Shown one piece after another: positions 6,047-51,978 of a DNA stretch of 64,000 nucleotides (the stretch's first letter is position 1; each line of letters begins with the position of its first letter). The stretch lies in NCBI RefSeq assembly GCF_024223415.1, contig NZ_CP100500.1. One strand, written 5' to 3'. Source of the DNA: Escherichia coli. Lineage in GTDB: Bacteria; Pseudomonadota; Gammaproteobacteria; Enterobacterales; Enterobacteriaceae. The notes beneath the pieces were generated by a model, which had not been told where the DNA came from, made no database searches, and saw only the letters and a program-made list of their open reading frames with translations. Made by a program: the position numbers and the translations under genes.

Positions 6047-6145
6047 GCCTGATGCGCTACGCTTATCAGGCCTACGAAAATCTTGCAATGTATTGAATTT
6101 TCATGATTTTGTAGGCCGGATAAGGCGTTCACGCCGCATCCGGCA
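6047..6145. repeat. REP/BIME-type palindromic element (two REP-like palindromes)
   Basis: gcctgatgcgctacgcttatcaggcctac and gtaggccggataaggcgttcacgccgcatccggca match the enterobacterial REP pattern. Confidence 0.7.
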
Positions 6146-16210: not shown

Positions 16211-16307
16211 CGTAGCCGATGAGGACGCGCCTGATGGGTGTTCTGGCTACCTGACCTGTCCATTGTGGAAGGTCTTACATTCTCGCTGATTTCAGGAGCT
16301 ATTGATT

Positions 16308-16721
16308 ATGCGTAACTTTGATTTATCCCCGCTTTACCGTTCTGCTATTGGATTTGACCGTTTGTTTAACCACTTAGAAAACAACCAGAGCCAGAGTAAT
16401 GGCGGCTACCCTCCGTATAACGTTGAACTGGTAGACGAAAACCATTACCGCATTGCTATCGCTGTGGCTGGTTTTGCTGAGAGCGAACTGGAAATTACCG
16501 CCCAGGATAATCTGCTGGTGGTGAAAGGTGCTCATGCCGACGAACAAAAAGAGCGCACCTATCTGTACCAGGGCATCGCTGAACGCAACTTTGAACGCAA
16601 ATTCCAGTTAGCTGAGAACATTCATGTTCGTGGTGCTAACCTGGTAAATGGTTTGCTGTATATCGATCTCGAACGCGTGATTCCGGAAGCGAAAAAACCG
16701 CGCCGTATCGAAATCAACTAA
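16308..16721 (+). CDS. ibpA: Small heat shock protein IbpA (137 aa)
   Basis: Alpha-crystallin-domain translation [21 protein letters not shown]...; paralog pair with ibpB. Confidence 0.95.
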
Positions 16722-30861: not shown

Positions 30862-30967
30862 ATATTTGGACAAAACGCAAACTGTGATCGATACTCAACT
30901 ATGCACTAAATACGTCAAAATTCGTGCCGAAATTGCGCGTTCTGCGCGGAACACGTATACTTTCAGT

Positions 30968-31042
30968 GTTGACATAATACAGTGTGCTTTGCGGTTACCA
31001 GCCGCAGGCGACTGACGAAACCTCGCTCCGGCGGGGTTTTTT
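30968..31042 (+). ncRNA. istR: IstR-1 antitoxin sRNA (approximate ends; IstR-2 would start upstream, near 30.9 kb)
   Basis: TATACT -10-like hexamer at 30956-30961; the 5' region (30969-30994) is a near-repeat of 30711-30737, i.e. antisense to the tisAB leader about 105-130 nt upstream of the tisB start; T-run at about 31036-31042. Confidence 0.5.
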
Positions 31043-46020: not shown

Positions 46021-47205
46021 CTAAATATCTTTAATAAACAGCAAGCAAATCATCGCAATACCCAACATCCCTATCGCCAGCCAGAACAACGCATGGTAGC
46101 TCCAGATTTCAACCATAATTCCGTCAACAGAGCCGGCGATAATCCAGCCGACGCGTGAAGTATTTGCATATAACGTTGTCGCAGAGCCTATTTTTTCAGG
46201 CATCAGGTCCTGAAAATAAAGCATGCCGATACCACAGAGAATACCAAGGAAGATGGCATTTAGAATTTGCAATTCCAGCTCAACTGCCGGAGTCGTCGCC
46301 ATGAGTACGCTGGCGTAAAAACACATTCCACTCACGATAGCAATGAGCATTAATAGCCGCTTGCCAATACGTTTCATGTAATAGCCTGCGATTAACATCA
46401 TCGGAATTTCCAGACCGGCAGCGATACCAATCATTTCTCCAGCCAGTTTATCGGTTAGATGCAGTTCATCAATAATAAATAGCGGCATATTTATCATGTA
46501 GAGATTATTCGCCGCCCACATCATTGAACAGACCACAAAAAGTAGCCGCGTATCCCGCTTCCTGTGGGTGGAGGGTAAAATTTCTATGGGTTGGGTAACG
46601 ACAGGAATATTTCTTTGTATTGATGGCAAAAACAACCAGACTATCAGTCCGCAAACAACAAATGCGATGGCAGCGGTGAGATACATCACTTTAAAACTAA
46701 ATCCCATAGCCAGTTCATAAGCGAGCGGTGGCCCGATAACCCAGGCAAGCGAGATCTGAGCACGTAAAAATGTACTGAACATGACCGTCTCACGGCCTGT
46801 TCTGTCGGCGTGTTCACGGGCGAGAGCGAACATTTGCGGGTTTGCGGTAGAAGCAAAACTACTCAGAAGTACGCCCGTAGAGAGCAGAATGAAGTAGTTG
46901 CGATTCCACGCAAAAAGCGTGCAGGCCAGCACTCCAAATAAGCAACATAGCAGGATCAGTAATTTACGGTCGCCTTGTTTATCGGAGTGCCTTGCCAGAA
47001 ATTGACTGACCAGAATTCCCATAATAGCGCTACCGGTGAAGAAAAAACCTACCATTATAGGACGGGCTTTCAGTTCATCTGCGAGGAATATACTTAGGGT
47101 AGGAGTCTGAAGAGCGCCCGCAATACCCGTCAGAAAGGCGACAAGTAAAAATGCCGCGGCAGTGAGATCAAGTATTTTTGATGGAGTGGTAGCCGTTTTT
47201 TGCAT
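46021..47205 (-). CDS. setC: Sugar efflux transporter SetC (MFS, 394 aa)
   Basis: MFS translation MQKTATTPSKILDLTAAAFLLVAFLTG...; last backbone gene before the island junction. Confidence 0.9.
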   Translation of the reverse strand: MQKTATTPSKILDLTAAAFLLVAFLTGIAGALQTPTLSIFLADELKARPIMVGFFFTGSAIMGILVSQFLARHSDKQGDRKLLILLCCLFGVLACTLFAWNRNYFILLSTGVLLSSFASTANPQMFALAREHADRTGRETVMFSTFLRAQISLAWVIGPPLAYELAMGFSFKVMYLTAAIAFVVCGLIVWLFLPSIQRNIPVVTQPIEILPSTHRKRDTRLLFVVCSMMWAANNLYMINMPLFIIDELHLTDKLAGEMIGIAAGLEIPMMLIAGYYMKRIGKRLLMLIAIVSGMCFYASVLMATTPAVELELQILNAIFLGILCGIGMLYFQDLMPEKIGSATTLYANTSRVGWIIAGSVDGIMVEIWSYHALFWLAIGMLGIAMICLLFIKDI

Positions 47206-47841
47206 TCTTCTGAATCACCGGGCGACAAAATATAACTGAGTTACAAATAAGTACCAGTCGAATGAGTATTGTATTAAGAATTTTTGAGTATCGCTGATAC
47301 AACCAGAAAACAATGCTAGCGCAATATTATAGGGCCAGCAATTGAGATTATTAGCAAAAGCATGTTAAGAATTAATCACCGAATTTATATTTAATTATAG
47401 TAAGGCAATGAGCTATTTTTGATAGTAAAAATAAAACAAGTTGATTTGATATATTAAATGAACAAATTAATCTTGATGGCAGTCTGATTATTGGTGAAGT
47501 TTATAGGTCAGTTTTTTTCGCCAGCTGTTAAAGGAATAGAACAGTCGTATAAAAAAGGGTGTTCTGGAGCGTGTAAAACAACATCTTCACCTTAATGGCG
47601 ATACAGTTGGCTGAGAGTCAGCAGGGGGGCAAATCACCTGCAAATAAACACGGCGCATGCTGGCGCGAATATCGCGGATGCGTTCGAGGACAGAAGAACC
47701 GACAGGCGGATTCTTCAGTCGCTCATCGTCCATCACAAAACCTTTGATCAGGTATTCCTGAAGCCGATTGAATATTGAGCAGTAGAAAATCTCTGGATTG
47801 ACAGTATTACAAGGGGTTGGAGAATGTCAGAAGAGGCATTT

Positions 47842-47864
47842 TGGCGGAGATCACAGGAGTCGAA
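47842..47864 (-). repeat. Imperfect direct repeat of the 3' end of tRNA-Sec (selC), the distal att junction of a selC-integrated island
   Basis: Minus strand reads TTCGACTCCTGTGATCTCCGCCA, the selC 3' end with one base missing (as I recall the tRNA); backbone lies on one side, island cargo on the other. Confidence 0.7.
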
Positions 47865-47996
47865 TATAAGTATTAATGCATTGATCTTAAATAATTTGTA
47901 TGTATTGGATAAATGAGTAACCCCCATAAGAACCCCCAAATGATTTTGCATGAAGGAATGAAGCTAAAATACATGATTGAATCAATTCTTAGTACT

Positions 47997-48842
47997 CTAT
48001 TGTGAAGGTAACATTTCCGGATAGTGTCTGGCTATAATATCATTTAGCCGATCAACCAGTTCTGGTTTCCTGAACGTGATGTGCGCGGAGCCTTTCTTAA
48101 AGTATCTGATGCTGAACATCTCATCTTCATAGCACTCTTTACCCTGAACAGACCGGATGTGATCATCCAGATGAATGGTGATGTTTTCCCGGTTGTCGGG
48201 GATCGGTTTACCGCTGAACAGGTGCAACATTCTTTCCAGATCGGCGAGTCGGTCAGCCTGTTGCCCGGTGATAAGATGAAATCCCCACCGGTCCCACCTT
48301 ACTAGGTTGTTAATGATAATTTTACTGCCAAATTTACAGGGGCAATTAGTTTTGTAATTCCAGCTCAGTCCCCTGAAGACGTTGATCACCCCTCGCTCAA
48401 ACACTTCATCTTTGTTCTGGTGCAGTTGTTTAAATGTGCTCAGAATGTTCGCTTCACTGATTTCCGGAAAATTATCGTACTCCAGTGACCGGTACCATGT
48501 ATCACGGGCCTGCGCATCCATTAATGACAGCATCCCGGAACGTTGCATCAGGTCACGCCAGATTTCGCGGTCAAGGTTGCGGGTGATGGCTTTCATTGCT
48601 GTTTCAGGTTTCTCCATGAGCCAGCATCCGCAGCGAAAATCCTGTTTCATCGCCCAGTCCCGTGCGCTTTTACCACCAATGCTTTTTGTCAGTACTGAGA
48701 TTTCAGTCAGTTGCCGGATAAGCGTTTCGGTTTGTTGCAGTGCTGCATTCCGTACCGTCACAACGTGTCGGATACTGGTGGAGCAGATAACGTCCGTATT
48801 CCCGGTGACCACTTCCGGATGGGAGATTGTGATGTTTGACAT
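47997..48842 (-). CDS. Hypothetical protein, probably DUF4942 family (281 aa)
   Basis: Intact ORF downstream of the CbtA module; domain assignment is recalled from annotations of this gene neighbourhood, not computed. Confidence 0.55.
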   Translation of the reverse strand: MSNITISHPEVVTGNTDVICSTSIRHVVTVRNAALQQTETLIRQLTEISVLTKSIGGKSARDWAMKQDFRCGCWLMEKPETAMKAITRNLDREIWRDLMQRSGMLSLMDAQARDTWYRSLEYDNFPEISEANILSTFKQLHQNKDEVFERGVINVFRGLSWNYKTNCPCKFGSKIIINNLVRWDRWGFHLITGQQADRLADLERMLHLFSGKPIPDNRENITIHLDDHIRSVQGKECYEDEMFSIRYFKKGSAHITFRKPELVDRLNDIIARHYPEMLPSQ

Positions 48843-48926
48843 TATCGGTTTCCCTTTTGGTTTATAAACGAAAACGCCAGCCGTATTCAGGCTGGCGTCA
48901 GTGGAATGAAGTCTGGTGAGTAAGGC

Positions 48927-49124
48927 TCACCGGTTCTGTTGCAGAAGCTGCAGTTGGCGCAGGGTATGGATATCCTCCCTCGCCTGTTCAATGCAGGGCA
49001 GCAGTGCTGCCGAATCCGTTTTATCCTCATCGTTGTCAAAGATAATTCCCGATTCGCAGTCGATATTGTCCTGCAGCCACGCAATCAGAATATCCAGTGC
49101 TGTTTCCGTGGTTAATGATTTCAT
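48927..49124 (-). CDS. Small YeeW-like protein, probably DUF957 (65 aa from MKSLTTETALD; track ORF extends to 49169)
   Basis: Small ORF immediately downstream of the DUF5983-like gene. Confidence 0.5.
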   Translation of the reverse strand: MKSLTTETALDILIAWLQDNIDCESGIIFDNDEDKTDSAALLPCIEQAREDIHTLRQLQLLQQNR

Positions 49125-49135
49125 GTTGTTCCTGG

Positions 49136-49624
49136 TTACCAGTTGAAAGTGGGTAAACCCGGCAGGCATTCAGAGCTGGCATCCAGATGAATGAGACTGA
49201 CGCCATAACGTCGGGTAAGTGTGACAACCAGACAACGGAACGTTTTTGACAGGCCCAGGCGCTTAAGCCGCAGAACCGGGTATGACCACGCATCGGTACG
49301 TAACAGATAGCCGCTACCTGTGAAATGAATCCATTCTGATTCACCAACGTCACTGGTCTGATGCGACAGCGAGTACAGCCAGGCGTTATCCTTTTCCGTG
49401 ATATGTGCGGTACTGCAGCGTATGCCGGCAAGGGTTGCAAACGGTGGTAGTGTGCAGGTTGACTGTTGGTCGGATTCCTCCACCACGCGGAGTGAATAAC
49501 CGTTTTCAGCGACCTTGTTAATCAGTTCAGTGAGATTAACACCATCGACGTCAACGACAATTTGCCCCATGTTCAGTGCCTGCACATTAATTCTGTCGGC
49601 TTCCAGCATCAGGGAAAGTTTCAT
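49136..49624 (-). CDS. Hypothetical protein, probably DUF5983 family (162 aa)
   Basis: ORF whose start overlaps the cbtA stop by 4 nt. Confidence 0.55.
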
Positions 49625-49995
49625 CGTTTCTCCGGATGCTTACCCAGGGTAATGTTATTTACCGTTCTGTAATTGTCGCGGGTCATCAGGCCGGTCGCCC
49701 GGCGAGCCCGGAGGATATCAATACTGTTTATTAACTGAGAGCGGGGACAAGTGCTGAATCCCGGCTGGTTGGTACGCACCAGCGCGTATTTTTCCACGAG
49801 AAAATTCACCGCATCACACAGTGAAATGCCAGCTTCAATATGCTGCTCAATCACACGTTCATCGGCGAACGGTGTGTCATTCAGTGTAAGGCCGTAATGC
49901 TGGCCCAGTAGTCGGGAGAGCAGAGTCTGCCAGATGGTGACGGGAGACGGGCAGCTCGATGCCTCCCGTACGTGTGTATCGGGTAATGTTTTCAT
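49621..49995 (-). CDS. cbtA: Type IV toxin CbtA/YeeV family (cytoskeleton-binding toxin, 124 aa)
   Basis: Translation [43 protein letters not shown]... with its antitoxin partner upstream. Confidence 0.8.
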
Positions 49996-50084
49996 ACTGA
50001 AGGTTTTCCTGATATGCAGAGATGAAAAATGGAAAAGTGGCGTGGTGAAAGCACCAGGCCGGAGCAGAAGGTTATTCCGGTGGT

Positions 50085-50453
50085 TTACTTTTTCGTTTCG
50101 GGCGTCGGATAAACAGCCAGATAAACGTAACCACAGGAGCCGAGGGTGTCGGCTTCGCAGGTCAGCCCTTTCGCATACAGCGTGACGGTATGCTGATGTC
50201 GGGGATTCAGTTCACCGCTGGTGAGCATGAGTTCCAGTTGTTTCATCAGCAGCGGAAAGGCCTGGTCCAGATGGTATGCATCTGCGTCGCTGAAGCGGCC
50301 TCTGATACCGGCGCGGTCGGCAAGGTAATGCAGGCGGTTACCCTCCTGCACCAGACGAGCGCCAAAACAGGGCCTCACTGTGCAGGGAAGCCCCCACCAG
50401 GGGCGGTCGTGATTGTCGTCGGGATGAGTTATCCCGGAGAGTTTGTCTGACAC
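50085..50453 (-). CDS. cbeA: Type IV antitoxin CbeA/YeeU family (122 aa)
   Basis: Translation [49 protein letters not shown]...; directly upstream of cbtA. Confidence 0.8.
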
Positions 50454-50615
50454 GATAAAATCCTCTCTGAAAAGTGGTTAAGAATGGTTTAATGATGACA
50501 GGTCAGCCGGCGCGCTGACCGGTTTCGGTGAAGGTGTATTCGTTGATGAGAATGGCCTCATCCACAGCGGCGTCTGAGGTCATCTGGTCGTACTCGTTTC
50601 CCGGGTGACGGAACA

Positions 50616-50837
50616 TCAGTTCAGGGTGACACTCATCAGCCGGACATACGGGCCAAAACTGTCCTTACGGCGTTCTGCAAATACAGCCAGCACACCGGGA
50701 ATATCCTGCACTTCACGACCGGTATACGCTTCAGTGCCACCATGCCAGCGGTATTTGCCGGTACAGAACGGAAAAAGACGGGATGCAGGATGCTGACGGT
50801 GAATACGCATGGCTTCACCACGGGTGATGATTTTCAT
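50616..50837 (-). CDS. YeeT-like protein (DUF987, 73 aa)
   Basis: Small ORF between the RadC-like gene and cbeA, the usual position for YeeT-like genes. Confidence 0.6.
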   Translation of the reverse strand: MKIITRGEAMRIHRQHPASRLFPFCTGKYRWHGGTEAYTGREVQDIPGVLAVFAERRKDSFGPYVRLMSVTLN

Positions 50838-50905
50838 AGTGTGATACCTCTGAAGACAGAAGATAAAAGTGAAAACAGGTGTGATGTGGTTGTGACGGTG
50901 ACGGG

Positions 50906-51397
50906 TTAAAGCAGACCGTGTTCCGCAAAGGAGAAAACCTGGCTGCCACCGATTATCAGATGGTCCGGCACCCGGATATCCACCAGGGCCAGTGCCTGTA
51001 CCAGACGTTCCGTAATAAGGCGGTCTGCCTTGCTGGGTGTGACTTCACCTGACGGGTGATTGTGTGCCAGCACCACGGCAGCGGCATTGTGATACAGGGC
51101 GCGTTTAATCACTTCCCGGGGATGGACTTCCGTGCGGTTGATGGTGCCGGTGAAGAGGGTTTCACCGGCAATCAGCTGATTCTGGTTATTCAGATACAGC
51201 ACCCGGAACTCTTCACGCTCCAGTCCCGCCATGTTCAGAATCAGCCATTCCCGTGCCGCACGGGTGGAGGTGAAGGCCACACCGGGTTCATGAAGATGGC
51301 GGTCCAGGGTTTTCAGAGCCCGCAGAATGAGACTGCGCTCGCCGGGCGTCATTTCTCCGGGCAGAAAGGAAAGCTGCTGCATTGTCCCTGCCTCCAT
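50906..51397 (-). CDS. RadC-like JAB/MPN-domain protein (YeeS/YfjY family; true start possibly at 51352, MTPGERSL)
   Basis: JAMM-like motif HNHPSGEVTPSKAD is present in the translation. Confidence 0.75.
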   Translation of the reverse strand: MEAGTMQQLSFLPGEMTPGERSLILRALKTLDRHLHEPGVAFTSTRAAREWLILNMAGLEREEFRVLYLNNQNQLIAGETLFTGTINRTEVHPREVIKRALYHNAAAVVLAHNHPSGEVTPSKADRLITERLVQALALVDIRVPDHLIIGGSQVFSFAEHGLL

Positions 51398-51883
51398 TCA
51401 GTCGATGATGCGCATAATGGCGCTGCATTCCGGATGCTGCAGGGCGTAATCCCGCAGCCGGTAATAATGGACCGTCATGGCATAACACTCCGTACGACAG
51501 GCGTGATGACTGTACGTCATCAGACAGGCAGCAATGCCGGCGGCTTCCGGGCTCATTTCAGCGCGGTTACCGTTCATGGCATTGAACAGTACCCATGTTT
51601 CGCCATCATCGTCATCCGGTTCGGGCGCTATAAATGCGCCACCGTTGTTCAGTGTGTACAGATTCCAGATACCACCGCAGTAGTCTTCGCAAAGACGGTC
51701 CATCCAGCCGAAGATACGGGGCTCCAGGGTCACCCACTGTGGAATGAGGCAAAAATGCTGCGGCCAGAAGCTGATGCGCTGTTCATCAGGGACTATGGTG
51801 GCAACCAGCTGAGGCTGGTCATTCCCTGATGCAGCGGTTACGGAAACAGAAGATGTGGTGGAATTATGTGAAATGGTTTTCAT
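51398..51883 (-). CDS. Antirestriction protein (KlcA/ArdB-like, YfjX family)
   Basis: Translation from MKTISHNSTTSSVSVTAASGNDQPQLVATIVPDEQRISFW...; ATG at 51883 preceded by AAGGAG; the track ORF starts at an upstream TTG inside the tandem duplication. Confidence 0.75.
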   Translation of the reverse strand: MKTISHNSTTSSVSVTAASGNDQPQLVATIVPDEQRISFWPQHFCLIPQWVTLEPRIFGWMDRLCEDYCGGIWNLYTLNNGGAFIAPEPDDDDGETWVLFNAMNGNRAEMSPEAAGIAACLMTYSHHACRTECYAMTVHYYRLRDYALQHPECSAIMRIID

Positions 51884-51964
51884 GAAATGACTCCTTAAAG
51901 GACAAATAAATGCGTGGTTTTCATGAAATGACTCCTTAAAGGACAAATAAATGCGTGGTTTTCA
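51875..51964. repeat. Perfect 41-bp tandem duplication (2 full copies plus an 8-bp partial third) over the RBS and start codon of the antirestriction gene
   Basis: ggttttcatgaaatgactccttaaaggacaaataaatgcgt occurs at 51875-51915 and 51916-51956, followed by ggttttca at 51957-51964. Confidence 0.95.
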
Positions 51965-51978
51965 GGGTAATGGCTGAA

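Follow-up and report, generated by a model that had tools for sequence, protein, structure and literature searches.

An Apparently Strain-Private 41-bp Tandem Duplication at the Start of the Antirestriction Gene ardB in Escherichia coli

In one Escherichia coli chromosome, the island-borne gene ardB, which encodes an ArdB/KlcA-family antirestriction protein, is preceded by a second and identical translation start. How did this arrangement arise, how widespread and how old is it, and does it change the synthesis of the protein? We addressed these questions in the first 64 kb of the chromosome, beginning at dnaA (hereafter the window). The chromosome is phylogroup-A-like, and the first 6 kb of the window show no difference from strains such as C600 and E. 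coli C.

Repeat array, ardB and the surrounding island

The array and the genes next to it are as follows.

51924..51964, minus strand: upstream (mRNA-5′) 41-nt unit, TGAAAACCACGCATTTATTTGTCCTTTAAGGAGTCATTTCA, a perfect match with 0 mismatches
51883..51923, minus strand: downstream 41-nt unit, a perfect match, with the authentic Shine-Dalgarno (SD) sequence and the A of the ardB ATG
51874..51882, minus strand: third copy of the 9-nt microhomology TGAAAACCA, from the alignment with the single-copy strain F404
51398..51883, minus strand: ardB, ArdB/KlcA-family antirestriction protein, 161 aa, intact (100% identical to WP_001469549.1)
51979..52797, minus strand: DUF932-domain gene, the 5′ neighbor of ardB (ORF listing and F404 annotation)
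50906..51382, minus strand: radC-family gene, the 3′ neighbor of ardB (TIGR00608, above cutoff)

Tandem Repeats Finder called a single array at this site (51874-51964; period 41, 2.2 copies, 100% matches, 0 indels), and its full content is two perfect 41-bp units and a 9-nt partial third copy. A search for repeats returned 41-nt copies at 51874-51914 and 51915-51955, each 100% identical, and the unit was matched in none of 100 shuffled sequences. The units are arranged head-to-tail and are directly adjacent, with no filler sequence between them. The microhomology reads TGGTTTTCA on the plus strand and TGAAAACCA on the gene (minus) strand. Its third copy runs from the TG of the ardB start codon through codons 2-3 to the first base of codon 4, and the remaining two copies in the array are located at 51964-51956 and 51923-51915. 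Among perfect tandem duplications with periods of 8-400 in the 64 kb, the array at the ardB leader is the only one. The perfect 41-bp tandem duplication described in the first-pass annotation was thus recovered by Tandem Repeats Finder, the repeat search, and the shuffles. That annotation had also placed the SD (AAGGAG) and the ATG of an antirestriction gene inside the duplicated unit, which agrees with the sequence and with the PF03230 and 2WJ9 matches of the product. Two of its details needed correction: the array starts at 51874 rather than 51875, and the microhomology bounding it measures 9 nt rather than 8 bp.

Pfam and PDB served for the assignment, as NCBIfam lacks models of ArdB and DUF932. 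The ardB product matches the Pfam Antirestrict domain (PF03230) at residues 66-161 over the full model (1-92; E = 5.3e-36), the PDB entry 2WJ9 over residues 1-161 (E = 1.2e-97), and KlcA (2KMG; E = 1.2e-19). WP_001469549.1, the protein of strain F404, is identical to this product over its whole length, and for this reason we regard the gene as intact. The structure 2WJ9 is apparently that of the ArdB from the CFT073 pathogenicity island described by Serfiotis-Mitsa et al. (PMC2836571); the accession is absent from the text of that paper, and the assignment was made because the number of matched chain residues, 157, agrees with the length stated there for ArdB-CFT. This ArdB from CFT073 PAI II is a close full-length homologue of the protein examined here, and the C-terminal 100 residues are almost identical. 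Proteins of the ArdB/KlcA family, including YafX and YfjX of K-12 prophages, inhibit type I restriction-modification (R-M) in vivo (PMC2836571). The island gene set DUF932-ardB-radC-DUF987-cbeA/cbtA is likewise of the same kind as at the loci of the CFT073 gene and of yafX and yfjX. In contrast to the gene under study, which was assigned as ardB by its sequence, these described ardB genes have no duplicated ribosome-binding site (RBS).

In single-copy strains, the DUF932 stop codon lies 54 nt before the ardB ATG. Here the same 54 nt separate it from the ATG of a short upstream ORF (uORF) opened by the duplication, and the distance to the ardB ATG is 95 nt. On the other side, the radC ATG (51382) is located 15 nt after the ardB stop codon with a GGAGG SD in between, and for this reason ardB and radC may form a translationally coupled pair. 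Any alteration in ardB translation might thus be passed on to radC. The ardB stop codon (TGA, 51400-51398) is followed on the minus strand by ATGGAGGCAGGGACAATG, in which an alternative ATG directly abuts the stop. A 257-aa ORF antisense to radC and ardB (51056-51829, plus strand) is probably a spurious shadow ORF.

The genomic island that carries ardB abuts setC/yicL, with setC at 46021-47205. In K-12, setC adjoins selC. No tRNA gene and no selC were detected by ARAGORN and Rfam anywhere in the 64-kb window, and the integration end of the island must be located beyond it. In the spacer beside setC (47206-47996), strain F404 has an annotated rhuM pseudogene remnant. On the 3′ side of radC are a DUF987 gene (50616-50837) and a CbtA/CbeA (YeeU) toxin-antitoxin pair, which together constitute the usual module of CP4-type islands.

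49621-49995, minus strand: CbtA-family toxin, island module
50085-50453, minus strand: YeeU/CbeA-family antitoxin, island module

This pair is flanked by DUF5983, DUF957, and DUF4942 genes as well as by the DUF987 gene. The DUF932 gene differs from its F404 counterpart by 22 SNPs and small compensating indels at 52354-52770, against 2 SNPs in the 4 kb downstream. The SNP cluster resembles a patch acquired by recombination with a paralogous copy of the island.

Farther upstream, an Ag43/Cah autotransporter gene (56377-63454, minus strand) is a pseudogene in three fragments, which correspond to profile positions 1-98 (63011-63454), 124-440 (58130-59128), and 504-948 (56377-58098). Compared with F404, a 3.9-kb insertion at 59203-63085 interrupts the gene, which also has a 2-bp deletion (CC) at 58184. 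The insertion contains the following genes.

59240-60778, minus strand: transposase of the IS66 family
60828-61175, minus strand: TnpB of the IS66-family element
61172-61573, minus strand: TnpA of the IS66-family element
61697-62227, plus strand: IS3-like ORF

Since Ag43 is broken by this IS66/IS3-like insertion and by the 2-bp deletion, the island is decaying in the source strain. An Rfam match to the IS102 RNA (63398-63634) lies near the insertion and outside it. Between the IrmA-family gene and Ag43, there is an 840-aa ORF (53740-56262, minus strand) that is annotated as a hypothetical protein in F404 and that had no NCBIfam match. In the core part of the window, Rfam matches at gathering score are AsdA (511-591), ES036 (6068-6110), a ROSE_2 thermoregulator (16242-16314), and istR (30913-31042). 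AsdA is antisense to dnaA, istR adjoins tisB, and all four are expected features of E. coli.

Ancestral state, distribution and origin of the duplication

When aligned with strain F404, the locus shows a clean 41-nt gap, and the flanks are otherwise identical over 241 nt. We used a 141-nt query containing the array to search 5,426 complete E. coli genomes, and 1,498 of them had matches, including 1,495 that cover the whole repeat region and 1,489 at ≥99% identity. Taken at face value, these 1,495 genomes have 100% coverage of the array, and we rejected this as evidence of the duplicated state. Each of the matches listed spans 100 bp in the record against the 141 nt of the query and consists of two overlapping pieces, which indicates a single unit. 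An uninterrupted 141-nt match was found in none of the 5,426 genomes, either by megablast (E < 1e-45) or by blastn with word size 11 (E < 1e-34), the latter reaching alleles down to ~83% identity.

Other collections gave the same picture. The junction 24-mer GTCATTTCATGAAAACCACGCATT had no exact match in 100,044 GTDB species-representative genomes or in the metagenome contig collection, and a single-copy control 24-mer was present in 71 metagenome contigs. All 69 contigs that could be inspected have one unit and a near-invariant 54-nt spacer, in which TGAAAACCA occurs twice at a distance of 41 nt. The three matches among plasmid records are all single copy with 100-bp spans; these records (1.2-4.9 Mb) are probably mislabelled chromosomes. 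The phage collection contained no match to the array query. A single-copy ancestral state, for which the first-pass annotation had proposed a comparison with orthologous islands, is thus borne out by the 1,495 E. coli genomes and 69 metagenome contigs. The opposite possibility that it had raised, a duplication fixed in all homologues, was looked for and is excluded by these single-copy relatives.

The best island match among the complete genomes has 99.4% identity, and none of these genomes carries the same IS66 insertion in Ag43. With its closest relatives absent from the collections, the duplication could be fixed in an unsampled sublineage. Based on these comparisons, its carriers could be a single isolate or a small clade that the collections do not cover.

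The structure of the array points to how it was formed. The unit is exactly as long as the spacing of a 9-nt direct repeat that was already present, and its copies adjoin each other without filler. This is the textbook signature of slippage or template switching. Three features of a microhomology-mediated duplication are found here, namely, a head-to-tail arrangement, an ancestral 9-nt repeat at the spacing of the unit, and single-copy relatives. In the ancestor, one TGAAAACCA would have been located in the leader and the other from the TG of the start codon to the first base of codon 4. These two repeats are 41 nt apart, and replication slippage or RecA-independent template switching between them would yield the present arrangement in a single step. 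It is well documented for E. coli that sequence between short direct repeats can be deleted or amplified independently of RecA, by slippage or template switching (PMC7145654). As in the pSTL tandem-repeat assays of that work, the copies here are perfect and head-to-tail, the unit length corresponds to the spacing of a short repeat, and reversal by the same mechanism is expected. Those assays, however, mainly score deletion between engineered 101-bp repeats, whereas the event at the ardB leader is a natural gain on 9-nt homology that was seen once. The window contains 66 other pairs of direct repeats of at least 9 nt at a spacing of 10-100 nt, so substrates for such an event are commonplace and the site is special for its position only.

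A very recent origin had been proposed from the perfect identity of the two copies. The recency itself is supported by the absence of the duplication from relatives and by a low divergence from F404, as the 4 kb around the duplication (48304-52353) differ by 2 SNPs and the 41-nt insertion. The argument from identity does not hold equally well, because identity over ~90 nt is a weak clock. At typical substitution rates of E. coli, such identity could last for thousands to ~10^4 years. The case for recency is better made from the lack of duplication in any other allele carrier and from the 2 SNPs in the surrounding 4 kb.

Taken together, we consider it probable that the locus carries a real and strain-private duplication, generated by slippage or template switching at the 9-nt repeats and most likely neutral and transient.

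The upstream ORF and its predicted effects on translation

The elements relevant to initiation are listed below.

51932..51937, minus strand: duplicated SD AAGGAG (SD1), 7 nt 5′ of the uORF ATG, read from the sequence
51895..51924, minus strand: 9-codon uORF, MKTTHLFVL*, out of frame with ardB, by translation
51891..51896, minus strand: authentic ardB SD AAGGAG (SD2), at the same relative position at the annotated F404 start
51919..51928, minus strand: palindrome TTTCATGAAA around the uORF ATG, an inverted repeat of 10 nt with 100% complementarity
51878..51887, minus strand: palindrome TTTCATGAAA around the authentic ardB ATG, the second arm of a predicted stem (inverted repeat and folding)

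The uORF starts at 51924-51922 and reads ATG AAA ACC ACG CAT TTA TTT GTC CTT TAA. Its TAA (51897-51895) shares two bases with SD2, and the ardB ATG (51883-51881) follows SD2 by 7 nt. The two start codons are 41 nt apart, and as 41 is not divisible by 3, the uORF is out of frame with ardB. Translation and coordinates therefore agree with the out-of-frame ORF MKTTHLFVL, with a stop codon overlapping the authentic RBS, that had been noted at this position. The uORF comes with an SD and a start codon of its own at a functional spacing (AAGGAG-N7-ATG), the same as in the ardB RBS, and its 5′ context is identical to the ancestral context of the ardB start.

These properties suggest how ribosomes may behave at the duplicated leader. 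The event keeps the ardB coding sequence and its proximal 41 nt of upstream context, leaving the authentic SD-N7-ATG unchanged; because this stretch is longer than a ribosome footprint, the intrinsic RBS of ardB should be unaltered. It also places an identical SD-N7-ATG 41 nt upstream, opening a 9-codon uORF with its TAA inside the authentic SD. Together with the first nine coding nucleotides of ardB, the uORF has taken over the complete 5′ context of the ancestral gene, so it should initiate like ardB, and its start would recruit ribosomes about as well as that of ardB formerly did. Ribosomes that have translated the uORF would terminate 11 nt before the ardB ATG, may briefly cover SD2 and the ATG, and may reinitiate there.

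Translational coupling works best at short distances between stop and start codons and acts through reinitiation or RNA unfolding (PMC12548453). The 11 nt between the uORF stop and the ardB ATG are short, but the overlap of stop and start codons typical of canonical coupled pairs is lacking. We also considered occlusion of the ardB initiation complex by the upstream RBS. Such occlusion was observed for starts separated by 3-25 nt, and a 39-nt uORF was free of conflict (PMC13285730). As the starts here are 41 nt apart, two initiation complexes need not collide, and we rejected this possibility.

RNA folding predicts a 10-bp stem that joins the two palindrome copies with a mean pair probability of ~0.6. 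The cost of exposing positions -20 to +13 of the ardB start rises from 6.1-8.7 kcal/mol with one unit to 9.3-12.3 kcal/mol with two units, and over 20 sequence contexts the ddG for opening the authentic RBS is +2.5 to +4.1 kcal/mol. By this prediction, pairing of the UUUCAUGAAA palindromes makes the real ardB start ~3 kcal/mol harder to open, and as the two UUUCAUGAAA copies surround both start codons, the uORF start may be affected to the same extent. Under thermodynamic models, de novo initiation at ardB could be lowered a few-fold, which uORF translation could partly relieve, and reinitiation after termination of the uORF could offset the harder opening. The uORF and the modeled structural change of ~3 kcal/mol could alter ArdB levels measurably. 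Overall, ArdB output would probably change little, with a reduction of a few-fold at most, and the sign of the change is uncertain. Coupling or attenuation of translation, as suggested in the first-pass annotation, is a hypothesis to which folding adds a predicted opening cost of about +3 kcal/mol. Rfam detected no RNA family at or near the repeat, and a promoter and terminator scan of the DUF932-ardB spacer returned nothing informative.

Two known types of leader cistrons resemble this arrangement in part. Like the bicistronic design (BCD) and naturally coupled uORFs (PMC12548453; PMC13285730), the ardB leader has a short and well-initiated cistron whose frame enters the SD of the main gene, and passing ribosomes would unfold structure at the main RBS and arrive near the main start. 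In BCD and the best-documented coupled pairs, the stop and start codons overlap (ATGA or TAATG), whereas here the stop is within SD2 and 11 nt before the start. Unlike those systems, the ardB uORF is an accident of one strain without conservation, and it is at most a candidate for coupling. The second type is leader-peptide attenuation as in erm, cat, trpL, and tnaC, with which the locus shares a short uORF and a possible alternative RNA pairing at the main RBS. Attenuation leaders, however, show conservation, and their peptides have specific roles in stalling or sensing. The ardB uORF arises solely through the duplication, was found in none of the relatives searched, and gives no hint of a sensing function; its peptide is an accidental out-of-frame reading of leader sequence. 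We thus rejected a conserved leader peptide.

Could the duplication nevertheless have been selected as a regulatory change that retunes ArdB synthesis? We regard this as unlikely. In one version, the hairpin and a transient occlusion by uORF ribosomes would lower ArdB and spare the type I restriction of the host. In the other, ArdB synthesis would become dependent on uORF translation, as in a natural bicistronic design. Both versions draw on a strong and optimally spaced SD-ATG that equals the one of the gene, on a uORF stop in SD2 11 nt from the ardB ATG, and on a new stem between the start regions that is predicted robustly (ddG +2.5 to +4.1), and uORF coupling and RBS unfolding are documented mechanisms. 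Moreover, dosage could matter to the host because ArdB proteins inhibit type I R-M in vivo (PMC2836571). Against selection, the duplicated state is found in one genome among more than 1,500 allele carriers with no hint that it has recurred or spread, the uORF peptide reads the leader out of frame by accident, the island is decaying in the source strain, and the predicted effect is modest and ambiguous in sign. The more specific idea of a selected bicistronic gate, in which the UUUCAUGAAA stem locks both starts and translation of the uORF unlocks it and feeds ribosomes to ardB, is quite improbable. If it were true, the dose of ArdB, an inhibitor of host type I restriction, would be retuned or made switchable through slippage between one and two copies. 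The reading that we favor remains a neutral and transient duplication in an already decaying island; this is the most likely case, with neutrality being an assumption.

Further alternatives and biological meaning

The duplication is unique to the source assembly across all collections searched, as would be expected if the genome had one unit and the second was added during assembly or polishing. We consider such an artefact distinctly unlikely. The array bears the exact signature of biological slippage, with a unit length equal to the spacing of the pre-existing 9-nt direct repeat, and it is located neither at a contig end nor at the rotation point. With 22 mismatches and 0 gaps between the 25-kb core and strain LR-31, the assembly shows no tendency to indel errors. 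In addition, ordinary short reads are longer than the 91-bp array, and errors of collapse or expansion do not typically take this form.

A reversible copy-number switch, in which frequent expansion and contraction of the 41-bp unit would give heterogeneous ArdB expression, is very improbable. Known contingency loci are built of many copies of far shorter units, which speaks against this possibility. The 41 + 9 nt of homology present after duplication should allow the unit to be lost or gained again more readily than it was first duplicated, and tandem direct repeats shorter than 200 bp undergo RecA-independent deletion and amplification (PMC7145654). Yet the other alleles searched have one unit, with none having two or more, and in the absence of copy-number polymorphism among them we rejected a phase-variable contingency locus.

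An N-terminal extension of ArdB to 182 aa from the in-frame TTG at 51946 is scarcely credible and was rejected: an in-frame ORF with this start is listed (51946-51398) and the start is absent in the single-copy state, where the F404 alignment has a preceding in-frame TGA, but no SD precedes the TTG (...ACGCATTTAT-TTG), a consensus SD-N7-ATG is located downstream in the same frame, and the gene-position index has no such 182-aa product on record.

As a known kind of mutation and a polymorphism private to one strain, in which neither selection nor function is evident, the duplication matters little in itself. It provides a clean natural case of how one slippage event at 9-nt repeats can place a complete second RBS and a uORF before an intact gene. 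Such a single-step gain is raw material for the evolution of translational control, with an architecture like that of engineered bicistronic designs. If the dosage of ArdB were measurably changed, the duplication would bear on the balance between island antirestriction and the type I R-M defence of the host.
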